Shown: one piece after another, positions 2-47,451 of the stretch
How the letters are laid out: every line of letters starts with the position of its first letter
Position numbering within the stretch: the stretch's first letter is position 1
Assembly (NCBI GenBank): GCA_963801605.1
Contig: CAWDFP010000006.1
Span: 800,001 to 864,000, forward strand
Length of the DNA: 64,000 nucleotides
Reading direction: 5' to 3'
Source of the DNA: an uncultured candidate division Zixibacteria bacterium
Lineage (GTDB): Bacteria > Zixibacteria > MSB-5A5 > UBA10806
Position numbers and translations under genes: made by a program
Notes under the pieces: generated by a model
Databases searched by the model: none
What the model saw: the letters and a program-made list of their open reading frames with translations, nothing else
What the model was told of the DNA's origin: nothing

Positions 2-1636
2 AAAATTGCCGCCGCCTAATGACAGGCTGGGAGCGTTATACGTATCGTTTCCGCCTCGTTCGTTAAGATAGCCTATGGTGAAATCATGACCGGAGCCCAG
101 CGACATATTCATCGATGCGGTATAGATATCGTTACCGGCGAAATCATCGAGATATCCCACTGCAAAATGCGCTCCTGAGCCGAGGGTGTACCAGACGCTC
201 TTATAAATATCATCCCCGGCCCCATCAAGCAGCATTCCCACCGCAAACCAATATCCGCATCCCTGGGCGAACAGTCCAGCGGAGTAATGATCATTTCCCA
301 TTATATCACAAAGAATACCAACGCCTCCGGCCCAGCTGTGGCCATCTATATAATCGGCGCGCTTGCCAAATCCCACTCCCTGGGAAAGTGAGGCGTTATG
401 CTCTTTGGTCTGCTGACCGGGAGCAAATAGAATGCTATCTTCGGCAATGTAGCTGTCGTTTCCGGAGTAATTGATACAAAGGCCGCAGCCTCTGGTATAT
501 CCAAAGCCCTGGGAGTTCGCCCAGCAGTAAAGAGAGTCGTCTCCGGTGCTGTCGCTTAGAATGCCAAGGCCAAATGATCCCGAACCTTGAGAATAGAATT
601 TAGCGCGGTATTTGTCATTACCGTTGTTATCCATTACAACCCCGACGCCAAACAGGGCGCTCCCCTGGGTGAGATTAATCCCCTGATAAAGATCATCCCC
701 GGACTTGTCGATTACTACAGCCATCCCCAGAATCGCCCCACCAATTCCGGGAGTTGTGGAGTCCGAGGAAATATACCTGTCATTTCCGGCAACATCGATG
801 ATCGCAGTTAACGGATATTCGACTGGATACCCGGAAAGATGATAGGTGTCATCTCCTCCCGGATCAAGTATTAGCAAAGGAGGTATTTTATAGGTATAAT
901 CATCACTTTCTTTAGTGCCAATTATAATCAAGCCATAAGGCGTTTTTATCGTCACTCGATGATCGGGAAATGAGCAATACTCAAGTGAATCGGCTGCCCA
1001 TATCAAGGCTTCACTTATATCTTCGGCTCCACCCACCATCCGGTTGAAATCGACCGATGCTGAAAGTCCCTCAATCATATCGTTATATTTTTGACTGTCG
1101 GCCACAAAGTGTTTGAAGATTTGAGATTGAACTTTGGCTCTGTCTGTTTTCCCGAAAGTTTGATTATAAATGAAAGAGCTATCATTAATTAAGGCGAAAA
1201 GCAGATCGATTTTATTTCTCAGTTTTTGATACTGCAGCCCTTCGAGCAGATTGCTCTTTTCCATAAAGGTTGGATGAGCCAAAGAATCGGGTGAATATTT
1301 TATAATGGGATCATCAATAAGCCCGCGACGAACCGGACAATCGATCTTTCGTCCCGCGCCCGAAATAAGTGCATTTATATTTCCGCAGTCGCTTCTAAAC
1401 GATTCAAGATTAAGCTTACCGTATTTGGGTAATTTGAGGGGATTTTTATGAAAGAGGGTAAAATATGAGAGACGCCAGGTATCGCCTCCCCATCCGGCCA
1501 TCTCGTCCTGGTCGAAATGAATATCCGCCACGGTCATATTCACTTGGACCATAACGGAATCAAACAGGCTTAAATCCTGGGCGTTAGAAAGTAATGGCAA
1601 AAACGTTACTAATACGATAAGGATCAAGGCTTTCAA
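2..1636 (-). CDS. Secreted glycine-rich repeat protein (about 10 DxxG[ND]DxY repeats); 3' end runs off the window start
   Basis: Not in the ORF track; translated by hand. TTG start at 1636 after a GGAG RBS, signal-peptide-like MKALILIVLVTFLPLLSNAQ, open to the window edge. Repeats include LDPGGDDTY, IDVAGNDRY, IDKSGDDLY, MDNNGNDKY and NERGGNDTY, separated by QGxG-type segments. Confidence 0.85.
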   Translation of the reverse strand, partial: MKALILIVLVTFLPLLSNAQDLSLFDSVMVQVNMTVADIHFDQDEMAGWGGDTWRLSYFTLFHKNPLKLPKYGKLNLESFRSDCGNINALISGAGRKIDCPVRRGLIDDPIIKYSPDSLAHPTFMEKSNLLEGLQYQKLRNKIDLLFALINDSSFIYNQTFGKTDRAKVQSQIFKHFVADSQKYNDMIEGLSASVDFNRMVGGAEDISEALIWAADSLEYCSFPDHRVTIKTPYGLIIIGTKESDDYTYKIPPLLILDPGGDDTYHLSGYPVEYPLTAIIDVAGNDRYISSDSTTPGIGGAILGMAVVIDKSGDDLYQGINLTQGSALFGVGVVMDNNGNDKYRAKFYSQGSGSFGLGILSDSTGDDSLYCWANSQGFGYTRGCGLCINYSGNDSYIAEDSILFAPGQQTKEHNASLSQGVGFGKRADYIDGHSWAGGVGILCDIMGNDHYSAGLFAQGCGYWFAVGMLLDGAGDDIYKSVWYTLGSGAHFAVGYLDDFAGNDIYTASMNMSLGSGHDFTIGYLNERGGNDTYNAPSLSLGGGNF

Positions 1637-37810: not shown

Positions 37811-38421
37811 TACGAGGATTAACTTTCCCCGAGTTGGGATCTGGTAAAATTAGATACGTGGCAAGGGGGCTGTGTCAAAATCGATTTCCTATTCTTACTT
37901 ATAATTGTTGATGGCGATTTCGGACTAATCCAAGATTTGTAAGTCCGGACAACCCTTTCCCGACTGATTCCACACTTCAAATTCGCCAAATACTATCCCA
38001 ATTCTTATTCGATAGCGGATGTCTTTGATTTAAAACACACGGTATCAAATATAATTCAATATAATTGAAAATCGTCTAAAATCAAAGCCTTTCCCTTCAA
38101 ATGAGAAAGTATAGCTGTCAATGCAGATATGACATTAAGCAAAAAAACCTGATTTTTCGCATAAAGCGAAACATATACATGTGTTACTGTGTTTATCAAT
38201 TTACATGATTATTGTATCGAATCATCCGATAATATAAAATAGGGCTTGTAGAATTCGTTCTAACCTTTTATATTAGGGCGAGTTTGTATTGGCCCGGGCG
38301 GCACGAGTCGAACCGGGTTTTCTTTTACATGATCCTCCCTTCAACTAATTGCAAGCGGACTATTATGTAGAGATTAATTTGGGCAGTGTTTAATCTGCCA
38401 TCGGAGAGGTTTATTAGTTTT

Positions 38422-40318
38422 ATGACAGCAGTTAAGCATATACGCAACGTCGCCATTATTGCGCATATCGATCACGGGAAAACGACCATGATTGATTCCA
38501 TCTTTCGGGCTACCCGGACATTCAGGGATAATCAGCAGATGGCCGAAAGACTGATGGATAATAATGATCTGGAACGGGAACGGGGAATTACAATCCGAGC
38601 TAAACATTGTACAGTCAGTTGGAAAAAATATCTCATAAATATTATCGATACGCCCGGCCATGCCGATTTCTCCGGAGAGGTGGAGCGAGTCCTTTCGATG
38701 GTTGATTCGGTTTTGCTGCTGGTAGACGCCAATGAAGGCCCCATGCCTCAAACTCGATATGTATTGATGCGGGCGCTGCGTTTGGGATTATGCCCTATCG
38801 TAATTATCAACAAAGTCGATCGTCCCCATGCCCGGCCTGATTATGCTCTAAATAAGACTTTCGATCTCTTTATCGATCTGGGGGCAAACGAAAAGCAAGC
38901 GCATTTCCCGGTCCTCTTTCGGTTCAGGGCTTGATGGCTGGTTTGTCAGAGATCTGGACAATGATCCGCATGAAGGGATGGATGCCCTGTTCGAAACATT
39001 AATCGAACATGTACCCCCTCCCAAAGTTGATCATGGCGGTCCGTTTCAGATGCAGGTAAGCACCCTGGCCTGGAGCGATTACATCGGCCAGATAGGCTGC
39101 GGGCGAGTACTGAGCGGTTCACTAAATATCGGTGAAGAATTTACCAGATTCGTAATGCGCTGGAAAGATCCGTCAAATCAGGAAGCCGGCTGGGAACTGG
39201 TTAAATCATCCAAAGAAAAAGGCGTTCATCTTTGGGTAACCCGCGGCTTAAAACGAACTGAAGTTGATCATATCAGCGCCGGCGATATTGTTTGGTTGGC
39301 TGGTCCCAGTGAAATCGGCATTGGTGATACTTTTTCGGCTAACGAAGATCCAGCATCGGCTCTTAAACCTTTAGAAATCGAGGAGCCGACTGTATCGATG
39401 TTTTTTCTCGTCAATACCGGACCATTTTCCGGATTCGATGGTACCGCTATTACGCTTCGCCAGTTAAAAGAGCGCCTGACTCGCGAACTACGCACCAATG
39501 TAGCCTTGCGTATGGAAGACCAGGGACAGGCCGATGGCGTTAAAGTGTCAGGACGGGGCGAGCTGCATCTCGCGATTTTGATCGAGGAAATGAGGCGCGA
39601 AGGGCTCGAATTCTGCGTTTCTCGACCGGAGGTTATTACTCATCTGGATAAAGATGGCAATACGCTGGAGCCTATCGAGCAGTTGATTATGGATGTCCCC
39701 GAGGAATATCAGGGAGTCATCATTGAAAAGTTGGCGAAGCGCAAAGGCGAACTAAAGACTATCGAAAATGCCGGCACCAATGTTATCCGTATTGAATTCG
39801 AGATACCTACCCGCGGATTGATTGGTTATCGCTCGGAATTCCTGACAGACACTCGCGGCCTGGGAATCATGTCGTCCCGCTTTATTGAATATAGTAATTG
39901 GCGGGGGGAGATCAATTTGCGCAACCGCGGATCAGTTATCAGCATGGATACAGGCCAGACAACTGCGTATGCAATCGAGGGACTTCAGGAACGTACGGTT
40001 ATATTTGTAGATCCGGGTGAAAAAGTATATGCCGGTCAGATTGTGGGCGAAAACTCAAGGACTCATGATTTTACTTGCAATCCCACCAAACGCAAGAATC
40101 TGACTAATCATCGATCGTCGACAAAAGATATAGCGGTTACATTGGATGTTCCGCGCAAAATGTCATTGGAACAGGCAATTGAGTGGATCGGACCGGATGA
40201 ATTGGTTGAAGTAACCCCGAAGGCGATTCGCATGCGTAAGGCAATATTAGATTCCGATGAGCGAAGACGCTCTCCTAAAAATCGAACCGGAGCTAAACAG
40301 GGAGTTGGCACGGTTTAG
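38422..40318 (+). CDS. typA: Translational GTPase TypA/BipA (split by one extra base near 38919)
   Basis: [41 protein letters not shown]; frames join as [12 protein letters not shown]. Confidence 0.92.
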
Positions 40319-41836: not shown

Positions 41837-43009
41837 CTATTTTGATGTCGCCAATCCTTCGTAGTAATTGAGTTGAATTGTATAGTCTTCGTTGTCGGGG
41901 TCCTCGGCCACCGCCTTTTTCGTATAATCGGCGGCAGACACATTATCGCCCTCTTCATGGCAAATATCAGCAAGGGTATCGTAGTAATTGGCTTTTTCTT
42001 TTCCGGAATGAGCCAGGGTTATCGCCTTTTCGGCTAACGTAGCCGCCTCACTTAAATTAACTTTTGCTCCCAGACACCACTGCGCGAATTCATTGAGTTG
42101 AATAGCCTGATCAGTCCAACCCTGAGGCATTGATGCTTTTCTATAAGATATGGCTTTTGTCGTATCACCATCGATAAATAGCAATTTAGTCGCGAGCAAC
42201 TGATCGTGAGCCTTGACCATGTCGGTATTAGTCGTATCTGACGTAGCGTCAAGTCCGCCCTTAATATATCCGGCGACTAATTCTTTCCGTTTGTTATCCA
42301 AAGACAATGTTACCATGCGCTGGCAAGCATCATATACCTGCCACTTTTGCTCGTTCTTAGACCTTACCACCTCGTCGGCAGCCTTTTTAACATCCTCAAA
42401 AGAAAATTCATTTTTTAGCGAACCGCAGGCCACACTGGTGAAAATTTCATAACTGTAATCATCAGTTGGATCGCTGTTGAGTTTTTGAGCTTCTTCGTAA
42501 TATTTGGCCGCTTTCTTACAATCGCCATAAGCCAGATGCCATCGTCCAAGTGCCGCCGCATCCTCGACAGTCGGCGTTTTATCCATTCTTTGCATCATTT
42601 CGGCAATTGTGCTCTTATCTTTTAAAGCGTCGTTAAGAGTGGGAATAAAATCGGTTTTATCGTAACCAAACCAACGATCTAACGGTTCGCCTTTGGCATT
42701 TACAATAATAAAGGATGGGAAAACCTTAACTTTGAATTCCTTTGCCAGGCTTTTGCCGTCGCCTTGTTCAGCGTCGGCTTGATAAAATACAACTGCCTCA
42801 AGCGCCTTTTGGGTGGCGTTGTCGGATTGGAGGGTTGATTCGAAATCTTTGCATGTAGGGGCCCACGTAGTGAAAAATTCAATTAATATCGGCTTATCCA
42901 ACTTGGCAGCTTGCGCTTTGATATCGGAATATTTAATATTGGTTTCTTGAGTATTACCCGGTAAAATAAACGCCAGCACCATCAAGCCAACTGCGCAAAT
43001 CGCTTTCAT
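41837..43009 (-). CDS. Exported thioredoxin-fold plus TPR-like protein
   Basis: Signal peptide; KPILIEFFTTWAPTC; cis-Pro VFPS; helical C-terminus with LNEFAQWC and YYDTLA. Confidence 0.8.
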   Translation of the reverse strand: MKAICAVGLMVLAFILPGNTQETNIKYSDIKAQAAKLDKPILIEFFTTWAPTCKDFESTLQSDNATQKALEAVVFYQADAEQGDGKSLAKEFKVKVFPSFIIVNAKGEPLDRWFGYDKTDFIPTLNDALKDKSTIAEMMQRMDKTPTVEDAAALGRWHLAYGDCKKAAKYYEEAQKLNSDPTDDYSYEIFTSVACGSLKNEFSFEDVKKAADEVVRSKNEQKWQVYDACQRMVTLSLDNKRKELVAGYIKGGLDATSDTTNTDMVKAHDQLLATKLLFIDGDTTKAISYRKASMPQGWTDQAIQLNEFAQWCLGAKVNLSEAATLAEKAITLAHSGKEKANYYDTLADICHEEGDNVSAADYTKKAVAEDPDNEDYTIQLNYYEGLATSK

Positions 43010-43380
43010 TTCTCCTCCTATTAGATTCGTAATTTTGTATTATCATATCACCAGGCTAAATACATTTCAACAATCTTTTTTTGGGGGAAATTGTTCCTGC
43101 CATTCAATCTTTGCCACCGATAAAACCCTTAAAGCTGATTTTATCTTACCGGGGGATAGTTACAATTTATTGAAACAATTCTTAAGTAAGGGAACCGTGG
43201 CGGTTTTCTCCGATCAATGAAATTTTGATATCTGATATTTAGCGCTATTACCATTGTGGGCTTTTATTTTATCTGTAAACACGGGAATGTAAAACGTTTA
43301 CCCTGAACCCGTTGAATCCCAGAGAGTTATCGGGCAGGGCGTGAAGCCGGAGCTGTGAATTTTAATATAAAATTCCGCAA

Positions 43381-43410
43381 ATAAATAGGCGGCTATTTCT
43401 AACCGCCCAT
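43381..43410 (-). terminator. Intrinsic terminator of the ECF operon
   Basis: ATGGGCGGTT-loop-AGCCGCCTAT followed by TTAT on the minus strand. Confidence 0.6.
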
Positions 43411-43430
43411 AAATTCTCTAATAATTTACC

Positions 43431-43442
43431 GGCCGACCGGCC
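43431..43442 (-). promoter_or_regulatory. Putative bacterial SECIS hairpin
   Basis: GGCC-GGTC-GGCC; loop starts 22 nt after the in-frame TGA; GGUC loop resembles the E. coli fdhF SECIS apical loop. Confidence 0.6.
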
Positions 43443-43454
43443 ATTGATTTTGAC

Positions 43455-43637
43455 TTAACCTCACCTGAATCCGCTGTTGGATCGGCAGGATGAACCACTT
43501 GATGCAAAGCTCGATAATACTCGCTCTGTATTGCCTGAACCGCATTCTTCACATGAAATATTTGTATCTGCGTGAGTAAATACGAAAACCTCAAATTTTT
43601 CGCCGCATTCATTGCATTTATATTCGTAAATCGGCAT
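43455..43637 (-). CDS. FmdB-family zinc-ribbon protein, probable selenoprotein (58 aa if TGA at 43463-43461 is a stop; 60 aa ending U-G if recoded)
   Basis: Missing from the ORF track. GGAGG RBS, then MPIYEYKCNECGEKFEVFVFTHADTNISCEECGSGNTERVLSSFASSGSSCRSNSGFR-TGA-GGT-TAA. Confidence 0.9.
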
Positions 43638-43667
43638 TATGAAACCTCCAAGTTATTCTTTTAGCTT

Positions 43668-44309
43668 TTACGCTACTGCTTCTTTGATAGCATCCAGAAG
43701 TATATGTTCCGGTACGGCGCCTTCCACGTCAATTGTGTCATTAATAACGGTCCGTGGAACTCCCTGGACTCCATACTTCCTCGCCAATTCAGGAAATTCA
43801 GTGGCTTCAATAGCGTCGGCTGTAACCAGCGGCGACTCGTATGCCAACTTAAATGCTGCCAGTACCGCCCGCGGGCAATAGGGACAAGTCGGTGTAACGA
43901 ATACCTGTAGATGTACCGGTTTTTTCAAGTTTTGCAGGAATTCCTTAGTCTCTTGGGATAGCCCGGAATTGTCCTTTGAAATCATTTTTACAGTTTCCAA
44001 AACGGTGACGAACTCATAACCGGATGGTATCCCGTAAAATCTTAAGCCTCGATCTTCACCATTGACAAAGATTGTCGCCGGGACCTTGTCTACCTTATAT
44101 TTGGCTGCAGCTTCCTTATCCGTGGCAACATTATAAACCTCTGCTGAGAGTTTGTCTGATAAGCCGCTCAACTCTTTTACCAGAGATGAAGTATCGTTGC
44201 AATATCGGCATTCCAGTTCCCTCGTGAAATTGACCAGCGTAACCGGTCCCGATAGCGATGAGAATTCTTTCTCTATCGCTTTTTTCTCTTTATCTTGAAG
44301 TATTGGCAT
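43668..44309 (-). CDS. Protein-disulfide oxidoreductase (PDO / AhpF N-terminal-like, two thioredoxin folds)
   Basis: CRYC and CPYC motifs, GIPSGYEF, GVPRTVIN; AGGAG RBS before ATG 44309. Confidence 0.9.
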   Translation of the reverse strand: MPILQDKEKKAIEKEFSSLSGPVTLVNFTRELECRYCNDTSSLVKELSGLSDKLSAEVYNVATDKEAAAKYKVDKVPATIFVNGEDRGLRFYGIPSGYEFVTVLETVKMISKDNSGLSQETKEFLQNLKKPVHLQVFVTPTCPYCPRAVLAAFKLAYESPLVTADAIEATEFPELARKYGVQGVPRTVINDTIDVEGAVPEHILLDAIKEAVA

Positions 44310-44368
44310 TTTTAGCTCCTTAATACAATCCATCCGATTTTTTCATGAATTAATATTCATGGTTTAAG

Positions 44369-44581
44369 TTATTTGGCGGCCTTAACTACGCAAGTATCTC
44401 TGCCGCAAACCTGGTACATGGCGCAGAAACGAAACAACCCTGTTAAAAGCAGCACCGCACCCAAGGCAATCGATACCACCATCCAGCCTAATGATTTAAT
44501 CAAAAATAATCCTATTACTATTAATACTATCCCCGCGATTATGCGGAGCGTCCTATCGAGTCCGCCCACGTTTGGTTTCAT
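44369..44581 (-). CDS. DUF2892 (YgaP-like) small membrane protein
   Basis: NVGGLDRTLRIIAG...LLLTGLFRFC...TC signature. Confidence 0.9.
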   Translation of the reverse strand: MKPNVGGLDRTLRIIAGIVLIVIGLFLIKSLGWMVVSIALGAVLLLTGLFRFCAMYQVCGRDTCVVKAAK

Positions 44582-44601
44582 AATGCCTTCCTTTTATTGA
44601 T

Positions 44602-44853
44602 TTATTTTGCTTTGAAGTGTTCGTCCCAACGGGTTTTGAGCACGCCTTTGAGCTTGTTTTCCAGAGTGATAGGCAGCTTTTCCCTGATACCGTCACGGCA
44701 GAGAATCACTGTTTGTTTCATGGTGTCTATCATTATTCGGCAATTATTGCAGTGGCCGATATGCTCCTCAATTTCCCGGCACAAGCTGAGATTGAGACTA
44801 CCGTCCAGGTAATCGTTAAGATCTTTTACATAATCAGCGCACTTATTTGCCAT
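44602..44853 (-). CDS. Soluble zinc-binding anti-sigma factor (zf-HC2/ZAS)
   Basis: C...LNDYLDG...EEHIGHCNNC (HxxxCxxC); overlaps the ECF stop codon; no TM segment. Confidence 0.9.
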   Translation of the reverse strand: MANKCADYVKDLNDYLDGSLNLSLCREIEEHIGHCNNCRIMIDTMKQTVILCRDGIREKLPITLENKLKGVLKTRWDEHFKAK

Positions 44854-45427
44854 GGCGAGCCTCAAAATCCTTTGATAAATATTCGCGAAGCGCCAATCTG
44901 GCGCGCAGAATTCGAGATTTTGCCGACGCTTCAGATTGTCCGGTCAGTTCCGCTATTTCCTTAACAGAGAGTTCATTATGATAGCGCAGCAGAAAAGCTT
45001 CTCGATATTGATAAGGTAAATTATCGAGGGCCATATTAATCTTTTCCTGCAGCTCTTTGGTCTCCAGTACGCGATACGGGTCCTGCCATTCGAGAAGATT
45101 TGTATCATGACTATGAGACTCGCTGCCCTGTGGAAGGTAGTCCTCTATTGGACGAAGGTCGGCCTGCTTTTCTTTGGCAAAGTGAGCCCGGGAAAGGTTC
45201 AAAGCAATAGCATAAAGCCAGGTGCCAAACGATGACTCCCCTCGAAATTGGCCTATGTTATCTATCGCTTTCAAAAAGGTCTCCTGGATAATGTCTTCGG
45301 CGTTTTCCTTGTTTCCCACCAGTCGATGTACCAAGGCGTATATTTTGTCCTTGTGGGCGTCAACAAGCGCCGTGAACGCCTCAAAGTCGCCCGACTGCAT
45401 CCTGGCTATCAATTCTCTTTCGTCCAT
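44843..45427 (-). CDS. ECF-family RNA polymerase sigma-70 factor
   Basis: AEDIIQETFL, SFGTWLYAIA, region 4 LSVKEIAE...KSRILRAR; likely start MDERELIARM at 45427. Confidence 0.93.
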   Translation of the reverse strand: MDERELIARMQSGDFEAFTALVDAHKDKIYALVHRLVGNKENAEDIIQETFLKAIDNIGQFRGESSFGTWLYAIALNLSRAHFAKEKQADLRPIEDYLPQGSESHSHDTNLLEWQDPYRVLETKELQEKINMALDNLPYQYREAFLLRYHNELSVKEIAELTGQSEASAKSRILRARLALREYLSKDFEARHGK

Positions 45428-45521
45428 TAGATAAGAATATACCAGAAATGATTCAAAATTTCGATAAAAGTTAATTATTTCACAAATATTCTGAATCAAA
45501 TGCCTGACGCGTCTATCTAAT
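45426..45521. promoter_or_regulatory. Mirrored divergent motifs TGAATCA-N15-TATCTAAT (putative ECF promoters) flanking a Rex-like box
   Basis: Minus copy 45455-45426, plus copy 45492-45521; AAGTTAATTATTTCACAA at 45468-45485 lies between them. Confidence 0.65.
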
Positions 45522-45564
45522 TATCGGTGATGATTTGTCCTGGTCTTAAAAAGTGGAGAAACTT

Positions 45565-47451
45565 ATGAAAATGCGAATGTTCGGGATAATGGTCATTTTG
45601 TTAATTGCGGTGGTTTGGGCGGCTTACGGCTTTTGGCCCAGAATTATCAACTTGATGCTTCCCTCCGATAGCAGACCGGGCAAAGTTTCATTTCCTGTTG
45701 AGCGTATTAATCAGGAGGAGTTTTCGGTGATTGCAAATGAGCTTAACGACTCCCATAGCGGCCAATTCGATCATATCGATCATTTTCGTAAAGCCGGCAT
45801 ATTGGCTTACGAGGGCCCATCAACATGCTTGAAATGCCATGAGACGATTAAGATCAAAGATGCCGTAACCGGAGCCGAAAAAGAAGTGAATCTTCTGGCT
45901 AATGTCACGGGTTCAGTTCATTATAGATTCTTCAGCTCCAGGCATCCCAATGTTTATGGTTTCAACGGCAAATTGGCTGATTATTTTCCAATGGGAAAAA
46001 TCGACCGTCCCTGCCCTAAGCCCGGCTCGTTTGCGATGACCGCTTGGGCCGAATTAGTCGTGACTCAAAAGGGCGATACTCTTTCCGAAGGGTGTGGCCA
46101 ATGCCATATCGGAGGAGAGTACCAGGCGCCGTTAGGAGATATCATGCCCGGTTATCGCCCTATAAAGGAAGAAAAGGACGCTATTGATTGTTTAATCTGT
46201 CATTCAGCGGCCTATGATATGAATAAGAAACAGGTAATAAAGGATGCCAGCGGTCGTTTACACTGGGACCAGGATCGATCGATGAAAGCCGCTATGAGCG
46301 TTACCAATACCACATCCCAAACCTGCCTTCGTTGCCACCAACATAATTTTGGAGGCGATATCTATATCGATTCACTCGATACCTCATTCATGCAAAGCAT
46401 TCAAAACACCGGATACGAAAGGCCTCGGGTACTTCATCCGGGCTCAAAACGCGGGACGCCGTATTCACCTTCCTGGGATGTTCACGCTGCCGCCGGTGTA
46501 AACTGCACTGATTGCCACATCACCGAGGGACACTTGATCGCCAAGGGAACGCATACAACTACTATTATGGCGAACGATCTGCCCCAAACGGAGGTAGCGT
46601 GCGAAAACTGCCATACGTCATCTCCTCATAAAAGCAACGATAAATTGGCTGATTACTTAAACAGCCACACTGAAAAGATCGCCTGTCAAACCTGTCATAT
46701 TCCTTCTCTTCAGCCCGATAATGCAACCTATCGCGATTTTTCAAAGACCGTTTATGAAGAGCGTGCCGGTATCTATGTGTACAATGATACACTAAAAGAA
46801 ACTGCTCCCGATAAGGGAATTACTTACGTCTGGTGGAATGGCGATGCTACATTCCTTGGAAACCCGATAGGCGATAATCCCAACGGAAAAAATCTATATC
46901 GATTCTATAATCCAACTCACATTTGGCCCGAATATAAGGATTACGATTATGCCGGCTGGTATGAAAAAACTATGCGCCCGATTGCCAGCGCTGGCAGGCC
47001 GTCGAAACTATATGCTATAAAGCTCTTTAATGGTAAACAGCATATTGATCTTCAAAATATGGGACCGTTCGGCGGCATGTTTGTTCCTTACAATTTGCCA
47101 ACCTATTACCGGACCGGAAATCCCGATCAGGCCGCGCAAAAAGAGATGGGCAAGAGCATGATGGCTATGATGTATGGCTATATGTTTAAGTATTATCTTA
47201 TGGATAAATTCATGTCCTTTATGAATGTCGATAGGTGGAATACCGGGGCTTACAAAGATGTTCTAAATATCAAAAAAGTTGAGCCTCGTTGGCTTCCCCA
47301 GGATGCATCTCTTGAGATAAGCCACGCGATTCGGAAAAATGGAGCTTTAACCTGCGATAATTGCCATGGACCAAATGGCGTTCTTGATTGGAAAAAATTA
47401 GGTTATTCTGATGATGAGGCGCTTTCGTTGAGTGATCTGAGGATTCCATGA
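45565..47451 (+). CDS. Octaheme c-type cytochrome (octaheme tetrathionate/nitrite reductase-like)
   Basis: Eight CxxCH motifs (CLKCH, CGQCH, CLICH, CLRCH, CTDCH, CENCH, CQTCH, CDNCH), last one isolated at the C-terminus; N-terminal anchor; GGAG RBS. Confidence 0.85.
   Translation: MKMRMFGIMVILLIAVVWAAYGFWPRIINLMLPSDSRPGKVSFPVERINQEEFSVIANELNDSHSGQFDHIDHFRKAGILAYEGPSTCLKCHETIKIKDAVTGAEKEVNLLANVTGSVHYRFFSSRHPNVYGFNGKLADYFPMGKIDRPCPKPGSFAMTAWAELVVTQKGDTLSEGCGQCHIGGEYQAPLGDIMPGYRPIKEEKDAIDCLICHSAAYDMNKKQVIKDASGRLHWDQDRSMKAAMSVTNTTSQTCLRCHQHNFGGDIYIDSLDTSFMQSIQNTGYERPRVLHPGSKRGTPYSPSWDVHAAAGVNCTDCHITEGHLIAKGTHTTTIMANDLPQTEVACENCHTSSPHKSNDKLADYLNSHTEKIACQTCHIPSLQPDNATYRDFSKTVYEERAGIYVYNDTLKETAPDKGITYVWWNGDATFLGNPIGDNPNGKNLYRFYNPTHIWPEYKDYDYAGWYEKTMRPIASAGRPSKLYAIKLFNGKQHIDLQNMGPFGGMFVPYNLPTYYRTGNPDQAAQKEMGKSMMAMMYGYMFKYYLMDKFMSFMNVDRWNTGAYKDVLNIKKVEPRWLPQDASLEISHAIRKNGALTCDNCHGPNGVLDWKKLGYSDDEALSLSDLRIP

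Follow-up and report, generated by a model that had tools for sequence, protein, structure and literature searches.

Closest described selenoproteins

FmdB-family proteins have been listed among the predicted selenoproteins of the Global Ocean Sampling (GOS) reads (Zhang and Gladyshev 2008, PMC2398784), and the selenocysteine (Sec) motif of the family has been given as UxxU (PMC13188914) or U/CxxU (PMC9312934). In both published FmdB sequences, it is the first CxxC of the zinc ribbon that holds Sec (PMC2398784, Dataset S2), and the same sequence is found in the deep-Sep supplement. For two other bacterial proteins, DUF466/KCU-star (PMC4607533) and SaoC (bioRxiv 10.1101/2022.07.06.499078), a C-terminal Sec and a SECIS element beyond the stop codon have been predicted. 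The consensus for bacterial SECIS (bSECIS) elements has a loop of 3-9 nt with a G at its first or second nucleotide, a stem of at least 4 bp, a spacing of 16-37 nt, and an energy of -7.5 kcal/mol or lower (PMC13188914).

We analyzed a short FmdB-family gene on the minus strand of the window, that is, the whole stretch of DNA under analysis (64,000 nucleotides). Like the published GOS FmdB, it has the TIGR02605 domain, predicted UGA recoding with a predicted bacterial SECIS, but it keeps all four ribbon Cys, and the predicted Sec is the penultimate residue of the tail (hereafter, the tail form). The original prediction was thus right that FmdB is listed among predicted selenoproteins, though with the published Sec in the first CxxC and not in the tail. 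As in DUF466/KCU-star and SaoC, Sec is C-terminal, the stop is double, the SECIS lies outside the coding region, and standard searches missed the gene. Those proteins differ in being unrelated, in having adjacent Cys-Sec as their last residues, and in having clear Cys-Cys homologs, whereas about 7 residues separate Cys from Sec in the window FmdB and Sec is followed by 1-5 residues in the family. The window hairpin differs from the bSECIS model as presented in PMC13188914 in lying wholly beyond the true stop. The resemblance to animal thioredoxin reductase (PMC4607533), which the original prediction had drawn, is a loose one: Sec is near a flexible C-terminus and has a Cys partner, but there is no homology and no flavoenzyme, the Cys and Sec are non-adjacent, 1-5 residues follow Sec, and Gly follows it in 18/49 homologs, which rules out a strict Sec-Gly ending.

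No description of the tail form was found in the literature available, though a mention may exist in subscription journals, in supplements on bioRxiv or in BSepDB online. One BSepDB supplement gave no tail-form match, the form is absent from a 119-family catalogue of 2026, and the available parts of PMC13326102 (text and supplement), PMC11227280, PMC3419521 and PMC11022373 hold nothing on it. No NCBIfam model specific to the tail form was found for the 49 aligned members among the matches listed (25 of 28 families). The tail form is an unlisted variant of the FmdB selenoprotein, and its recoding mechanism is the ordinary bacterial one.

The FmdB gene and its predicted protein

The features of the gene and of its 3' region are as follows.

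43645..43649, minus strand: Shine-Dalgarno-like GGAGG (sequence; 7 nt to the ATG)
43455..43637, minus strand: FmdB-family zinc-ribbon gene with TGA read through, 60 residues plus TAA (TIGR02605, PF09723)
43515..43637, minus strand: Cys4 zinc-ribbon domain, residues 1-41, with Cys8, Cys11, Cys29 and Cys32 (PF09723, alignment, AlphaFold2)
43458..43514, minus strand: Ser/Gly-rich tail, residues 42-60, with Cys51, predicted Sec59 and Gly60 (alignment, pLDDT)
43461..43463, minus strand: TGA, predicted selenocysteine codon (frame, homolog pattern, co-occurrence)
43455..43457, minus strand: TAA, predicted true stop (frame; second stop within 5 codons in 49/49 aligned homologs)
43430..43443, minus strand: SECIS-like hairpin within the 3' untranslated region (UTR), loop GGUC at 43438-43435 (sequence, folding, kept in the same-genus ortholog L022)
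43385..43410, minus strand: separate intrinsic-terminator-like hairpin closing the operon (folding, terminator-like hairpin)

The frame runs from the ATG at 43637 through 58 codons to the TGA (43463-43461), GGT (43460-43458) and TAA (43457-43455). Its 58-codon ORF is present in an ORF listing made at a 50-aa threshold, and a plus-strand reading of 43431..43637 was ruled out by several stops. The ribosome-binding site that had been described as strong is in place (GGAGG at 43649-43645, 7 nt upstream of the ATG), and so are the MPIYEY start, the two CxxC motifs and the ending SSCRSNSGFR-TGA-GGT-TAA, all on the minus strand, the strand having been left unnamed. The protein reads MPIYEYKCNEC...CEEC...SSCRSNSGFR before the TGA.

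Membership in the FmdB family is clear, with a TIGR02605 score of 66 bits (cut-off 31.3) and a PF09723 score of 61.8 (cut-off 34.4) over a sequence with two CxxC motifs from the N-terminus; 49/49 aligned family members also match. Cys8, Cys11, Cys29 and Cys32 of the ribbon are invariant across the 49 aligned homologs, and Cys51 of the tail is kept in at least 90% of them. AlphaFold2, run with the 49-sequence alignment, modeled a three-strand ribbon over residues 1-40 (block pLDDT 75-88) and gave the tail a pLDDT of about 54, so the tail is predicted to be flexible. Structure searches with this model returned generic zinc fingers and ribbons only; the best PDB matches were zinc ribbons, none at E <= 0.001. 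The ribbon presumably binds zinc.

Stop codons, extensions and hairpins in homologous tails

To compare tails without reference to the stop codon, FmdB ORFs were classed by how many Cys stand among the 14 residues preceding the first stop, with the codon disregarded. The main sample held 117 ORFs from 110 loci (30 from relatives and 80 from a GTDB genome scan), and a few loci had no ORF matching the pattern. Tails with a single distal Cys ended in TGA in 45/47 cases, and the remaining two carry additional Cys earlier in the tail. The multi-Cys tails (n = 49) were divided among TGA (20), TAA (22) and TAG (7), and the long tails among TGA (11), TAG (8) and TAA (1). All 45 single-Cys TGA tails have a second stop within 6 codons after the TGA, and 43/45 have a G-loop hairpin. 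An independent second sample of 80 metagenome loci gave the same pattern: single-Cys tails ended in TGA in 15/15, with the hairpin and a second stop within 5 codons in 14/15 (the 15th meets the contig end), and 44 multi-Cys tails ended in TGA (21), TAA (15) or TAG (8). For comparison, a second stop within 5 codons follows 293/834 TGA-ending ORFs genome-wide (35%) and 3/28 TGA-ending control paralogs. The TGA-tail loci include Desulfobacterales, Syntrophales, Dehalococcoidales, Thermoanaerobaculia and Fibrobacterota, as well as Krumholzibacteriota, Neomarinimicrobiota, Bacillota and Nitrospirota. A plasmid search gave a single weak N-terminal match.

The 49 aligned members comprise the 45 single-Cys TGA tails of the main sample plus four TGA cases picked by eye, of which three have a double Cys and the fourth a Cys at a greater distance, so that the set is conditioned on TGA. 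Alignment of homologs, which had been proposed as a check, showed that the TGA, the short extension (1-5 residues after the Sec position), the second stop and the hairpin are kept, and that Gly after Sec is not: among the 49, the predicted Sec is followed by Ala in 20, by Gly in 18 and by Ser in 5. The Cys-to-Sec distance is mostly 2-10 residues in the homologs and 7 in the window copy. As had been predicted for the window copy, the SECIS lies beyond the true stop, in the 3' UTR: the loop is beyond the second stop in 47/47 members with a detected hairpin.

The sequence-only anchor GGT[CT] at +14..24 is found in 35/49 members and in 4/68 control ORFs. Because gaps made a MAFFT alignment of the 3' regions unsuitable for counting pairs, the count was anchored on the motif. 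Stem positions 2-6 were paired in 124/175 cells, compared with 74.9 +/- 5.7 in partner shuffles, 0/5000 of which reached 124, although these counts are inflated by the relatedness of the sequences. G-C, C-G, A-U and U-A pairs are all found at the same stem positions. Slid controls kept pairing in 4 to 25 of 35 at each position, which makes sliding a less discriminating control than shuffling.

Other kinds of tails were also seen. His-rich, Cys-free FmdB tails end in TGA-x-x-stop with a hairpin at +28/29 (L359, L362, L365), and some multi-Cys tails have, where the last or the first Cys of the tail would stand, a TGA with a hairpin (L285, L298, L425).

These patterns bear on the simplest alternative, in which all family members simply stop at the TGA, the second stop codon serves as a tandem back-up, and the hairpin acts as a terminator or for stability. 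In this genome, TGA ends 834/2709 called ORFs, and for 35% of these another stop follows within 5 codons; 36/36 database homologs are annotated without the extension; and G directly follows the TGA in 38/49 homologs, a context that favors termination in E. coli. Left unexplained by this reading are the TGA endings of single-Cys tails from different phyla (45/47 and 15/15), the constant spacing between the TGA and the GGU loop, and both the restriction to Sec-using genomes and the Cys/TGA pairs described below, and a separate terminator-like hairpin sits downstream. We consider it very unlikely.

The hairpin of the window copy

The GGCC-GGTC-GGCC hairpin claimed for this gene, with its loop 22 nt after the TGA, was found at 43442-43431 on the minus strand. 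The 12-mer occurs once in the window, and 0/100 shuffles contain one. Taken alone, the hairpin is weak and unremarkable. Folding of the 44 nt from the UGA gave -7.6 kcal/mol (z = -0.35). Two registers compete, one with the loop GGUC (-7.4 kcal/mol, closing-pair probability 0.52-0.59) and a slipped one with the loop UCGG (-7.6 kcal/mol, probability 0.40-0.47). Compared with the bSECIS consensus, the loop (GGUC), stem (4-5 bp) and spacing (22) agree, and the energies of the two registers straddle the -7.5 kcal/mol threshold. A GGT-loop hairpin 12-30 nt past the stop is found in this genome for 3/834 TGA-ending, 5/1267 TAA-ending and 3/608 TAG-ending ORFs. Our own fold-based bSECIS test was passed by 40/49 homologs and 16/68 controls, but also by 117/834 ordinary TGA genes of this genome, and the window copy fails it. 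An Rfam scan of 42900-45700 gave a single match at chance level. The SECIS loop of E. coli fdhF contains GGUC.

Because the hairpin is weak alone, the case for Sec rests on comparison. The same-genus ortholog (L022), which ends F-R-TGA-G-TAA, has the identical 12-mer at +20 with the same 4-bp stem and a probability of 1.0, and the slipped register is impossible there. Conservation lifts the window hairpin above chance.

Cysteine counterparts

A profile with Cys in the Sec column was run on 1.84 billion representatives and gave 26,349 matches, the top 150 of which were inspected. Among these, 148 were short, and 95/148 end at F/Y-x, the motif preceding the TGA in the aligned genes. A C...F-x-C ending was found in 0/148, these short matches being 50%-identity protein clusters known from proteins alone. 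From these proteins, the main branch seems to be without a plain Cys form. Cys/Sec pairs thus come from side branches alone, which weakens the usual Cys/Sec argument for a selenoprotein but would explain why the tail form was missed; the deep-Sep authors state that proteins without Cys counterparts can be filtered out (PMC12013277).

The proposed search for Cys at the TGA position thus gave none among the 148 short matches and found pairs in side branches. One side branch has CPT-U (L035) paired with CPT-C (L139, L168), each of the three loci being near a DUF5320-like gene and a second FmdB, and the CPT-C genomes tested have no selD over the cut-off. Elsewhere, CxxU-G closes a multi-Cys tail (L298), and U is the first of several tail Cys (L425).

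Sec machinery and co-occurrence

The original prediction had called for a search for selA, selB, selC and selD, and all four were found in the genome, with tRNA-Sec scoring 68.7 bits, selD itself containing an in-frame TGA, and selB frameshifted in the assembly. The selB gene lies in two frames at G000:C6:1297842-1299696 (L010, L013), with a one-base insertion relative to relatives. Because selB is intact in 5/5 relatives, including both same-genus genomes, and 5/40 genes comparable with relatives' proteins look frameshifted in this assembly, the break is probably an assembly error. Within the window, a GTPase gene on the plus strand (38386-40318) is apparently split in two frames (38386-38934 and 38978-40318); we take it to be TypA/BipA-like.

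A TGA-readthrough frame scan of the genome gave 601 candidates, of which 54 were printed and six tested, yielding a further four likely selenoproteins, below family cut-offs and with UGC or UxxC motifs: an OS_HP2-like protein, a pair of Omp28-like proteins and a thioredoxin-TPR protein. The two further candidates were ruled out as adjacent genes. Three of the four and selD have stable hairpins with GGU-starting loops at +21, +23, +23 and +32, a loop type shared with the window FmdB gene. The OS_HP2/DUF1573-like gene with UGC and the two Omp28-like genes with UxxC are at G000:C6:2767-4074, C6:195713-196834 and C7:106798-108141 (L232, L233, L235). Matches to MvhD and molybdopterin Fe4S4 in the genome had no TGA inside the matched stretch. 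Downstream of the FmdB gene, a thioredoxin-TPR gene (41837-43009, minus strand) has AxxC, and its paralog at G000:C6:1327664-1328890 (L234), 41% identical, has UxxC and a SECIS-like hairpin. A selA match at G061:C157:2068-3432 contains one in-frame TGA.

The frameshift raises the possibility that the family is a selenoprotein family while this organism no longer decodes its TGA, selB being broken or the hairpin decayed, which would leave a 58-residue product. The hairpin is indeed weaker than the other SECIS-like stems of the genome and has a competing register. We regard this loss as improbable, however: selB is intact in all five relatives, the frameshifted look of 5/40 testable genes and of typA in the window suggests errors in the assembly, the genome still has selA, selD, tRNA-Sec and four other TGA genes in open form, and the same-genus ortholog has the same 4-bp stem.

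The tail pattern tracks the Sec machinery. Across the window's class, selA is above the cut-off in 57/61 genomes, and the other four have partial matches. Among GTDB genomes, the tail form was found in 23/66 selA-positive and 0/14 selA-negative genomes (Fisher p = 0.008, with kin not independent; one sub-cut-off selA match in this 80-genome count was scored as selA-negative). To compare genomes of mixed status, we used a class in which 60/91 are selA-positive, taking only the best-scoring FmdB loci (63 genomes; the fetch truncated five ORFs). A TGA followed by a short extension and a hairpin was found in 16/39 selA-positive and 1/24 selA-negative genomes. That lone exception has selB, a high-scoring tRNA-Sec and a TGA-containing selD, and so does a second selA-negative genome that has a TGA tail with no detected hairpin. 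In three selA-negative genomes whose tails are of the CPT-C kind, neither selB nor selD scores above the cut-off, and tRNA-Sec is at best borderline (49-53 bits). The genomes are incomplete, so the absences of Sec genes are soft.

On the exclusivity of TGA, the extension with its hairpin, and the restriction to genomes with Sec machinery, the tail-form FmdB family is almost certainly a selenoprotein family, and the TGA at codon 59 of the window copy is very probably read as Sec. The C-x7-U-G product that had been claimed is therefore likely, with the Sec genes present and the TGA, extension and hairpin kept in homologs. By analogy with established bacterial Sec decoding, a SelB-GTP-Sec-tRNA complex would bind the GGUC hairpin and deliver Sec to the UGA; Gly60 would then be added after Sec59, and the TAA would end the 60-residue protein. 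Only the end of the frame one codon past the UGA places the SECIS in the 3' UTR; its spacing is itself usual.

Probable operon, neighbors and possible function

The FmdB gene is the last of a probable operon, whose other genes lie upstream.

43668..44333, minus strand: protein disulfide oxidoreductase, TIGR02187, Cys form (profile match; also upstream in the same-genus ortholog)
44369-44581, minus strand: YgaP-like membrane protein (ORF listing, profile matches)
44602-44865, minus strand: zf-HC2 anti-sigma factor (ORF listing, profile matches)
44843-45499, minus strand: ECF sigma factor (ORF listing, profile matches)

The disulfide oxidoreductase gene is probably co-transcribed with the FmdB gene; among the fetched loci, this neighbor is common only to the window copy and its same-genus ortholog. 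Divergent from the ECF sigma operon, a gene at 45553-47451 (plus strand) encodes a multiheme c-type cytochrome related to octaheme tetrathionate reductase. Neighbors elsewhere vary but often concern thiols, sulfur or metals, and recurring ones include thioredoxin-like, OsmC, ArsR and metal repressor proteins (126/139 neighboring ORFs scanned). A bacteriocin-precursor reading of the Ser/Gly tail was dropped because no modifying enzyme recurs among these 126 neighbors. No fixed partner gene was found outside the window's class.

In at least 19/26 loci from the window's class, the gene directly upstream encodes a two-helix protein whose loop has the form C-x3/4-C and which matches DUF6132 in part; three genomes have TGA in place of its second Cys. 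DUF6132-type two-helix microproteins with TGA at the second Cys of the loop were seen at L034 and L045 (both upstream of the FmdB gene) and at L255, with a G-loop hairpin about 18 nt downstream of the TGA by eye, and same-class homologs have Cys there. This microprotein is likely a second unlisted selenoprotein; the window's genome gave no DUF6132 match. The commonest context in the window's own family is, in this order, DUF302, the two-helix microprotein and a tail-Sec FmdB (L023-L032, L044, L214), and one same-genus genome has both an FmdB copy in the DUF302 context and an oxidoreductase-linked copy.

The function of the tail is less clear than its decoding. The flexible arm with Cys51 and Sec59 may cycle between selenylsulfide and reduced states, the co-transcribed disulfide oxidoreductase may recycle it, and the operon may serve a thiol- or sulfur-stress response under the ECF sigma/anti-sigma pair. 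We give even chances to the tail being mainly a redox unit, rather than a metal-binding one. The same recoding could also supply a soft-metal or cluster-binding arm, in which Sec replaces several Cys ligands of the multi-Cys tails and the protein chaperones or senses copper, nickel, mercury or an Fe-S cluster. Sec-free paralogs have tails with several Cys, Cys and Sec stand anywhere from 2 to 10 residues apart, certain Sec tails are rich in His and Cys-free (L359, L362, L365) or have Sec as the first of several tail Cys (L425), and among the neighbors are a metal-sensing repressor, ArsR, cation efflux, NUBPL, SufBD and Nitro_FeMo-Co proteins. The variable spacing and the His-rich, Cys-free Sec tails fit metal binding at least as well as redox chemistry. 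Yet the window's own operon is a thiol-disulfide module, one Cys and one Sec alone are a poor ligand set, and a review states that most uncharacterized selenoproteins are probably redox proteins (PMC13188914). The metal arm is a close though somewhat less likely rival, and the redox reading remains our preference for the window copy.

Implications for the family

More speculatively, the family may be among the most widespread unrecognized bacterial selenoproteins, missed by Cys/Sec-pair searches for want of a Cys version in its main branch, with its SECIS wholly in the 3' UTR, and paired in the window's class with a two-helix DUF6132-type microprotein, itself able to carry Sec, in a minimal cross-membrane selenium/sulfur redox relay; as a whole this picture is rather doubtful. 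UTR-located SECIS elements have predicted precedents, and a 60-residue protein with such an element should be easy to test. This natural set of SECIS elements, free of coding constraints, would be useful for defining SelB recognition. If the reading is true, a blind spot of Cys/Sec-pair and local-alignment searches is exposed, a small selenoprotein of many anaerobic lineages is truncated in protein databases, and the known selenoproteomes of many uncultured bacteria would be larger.
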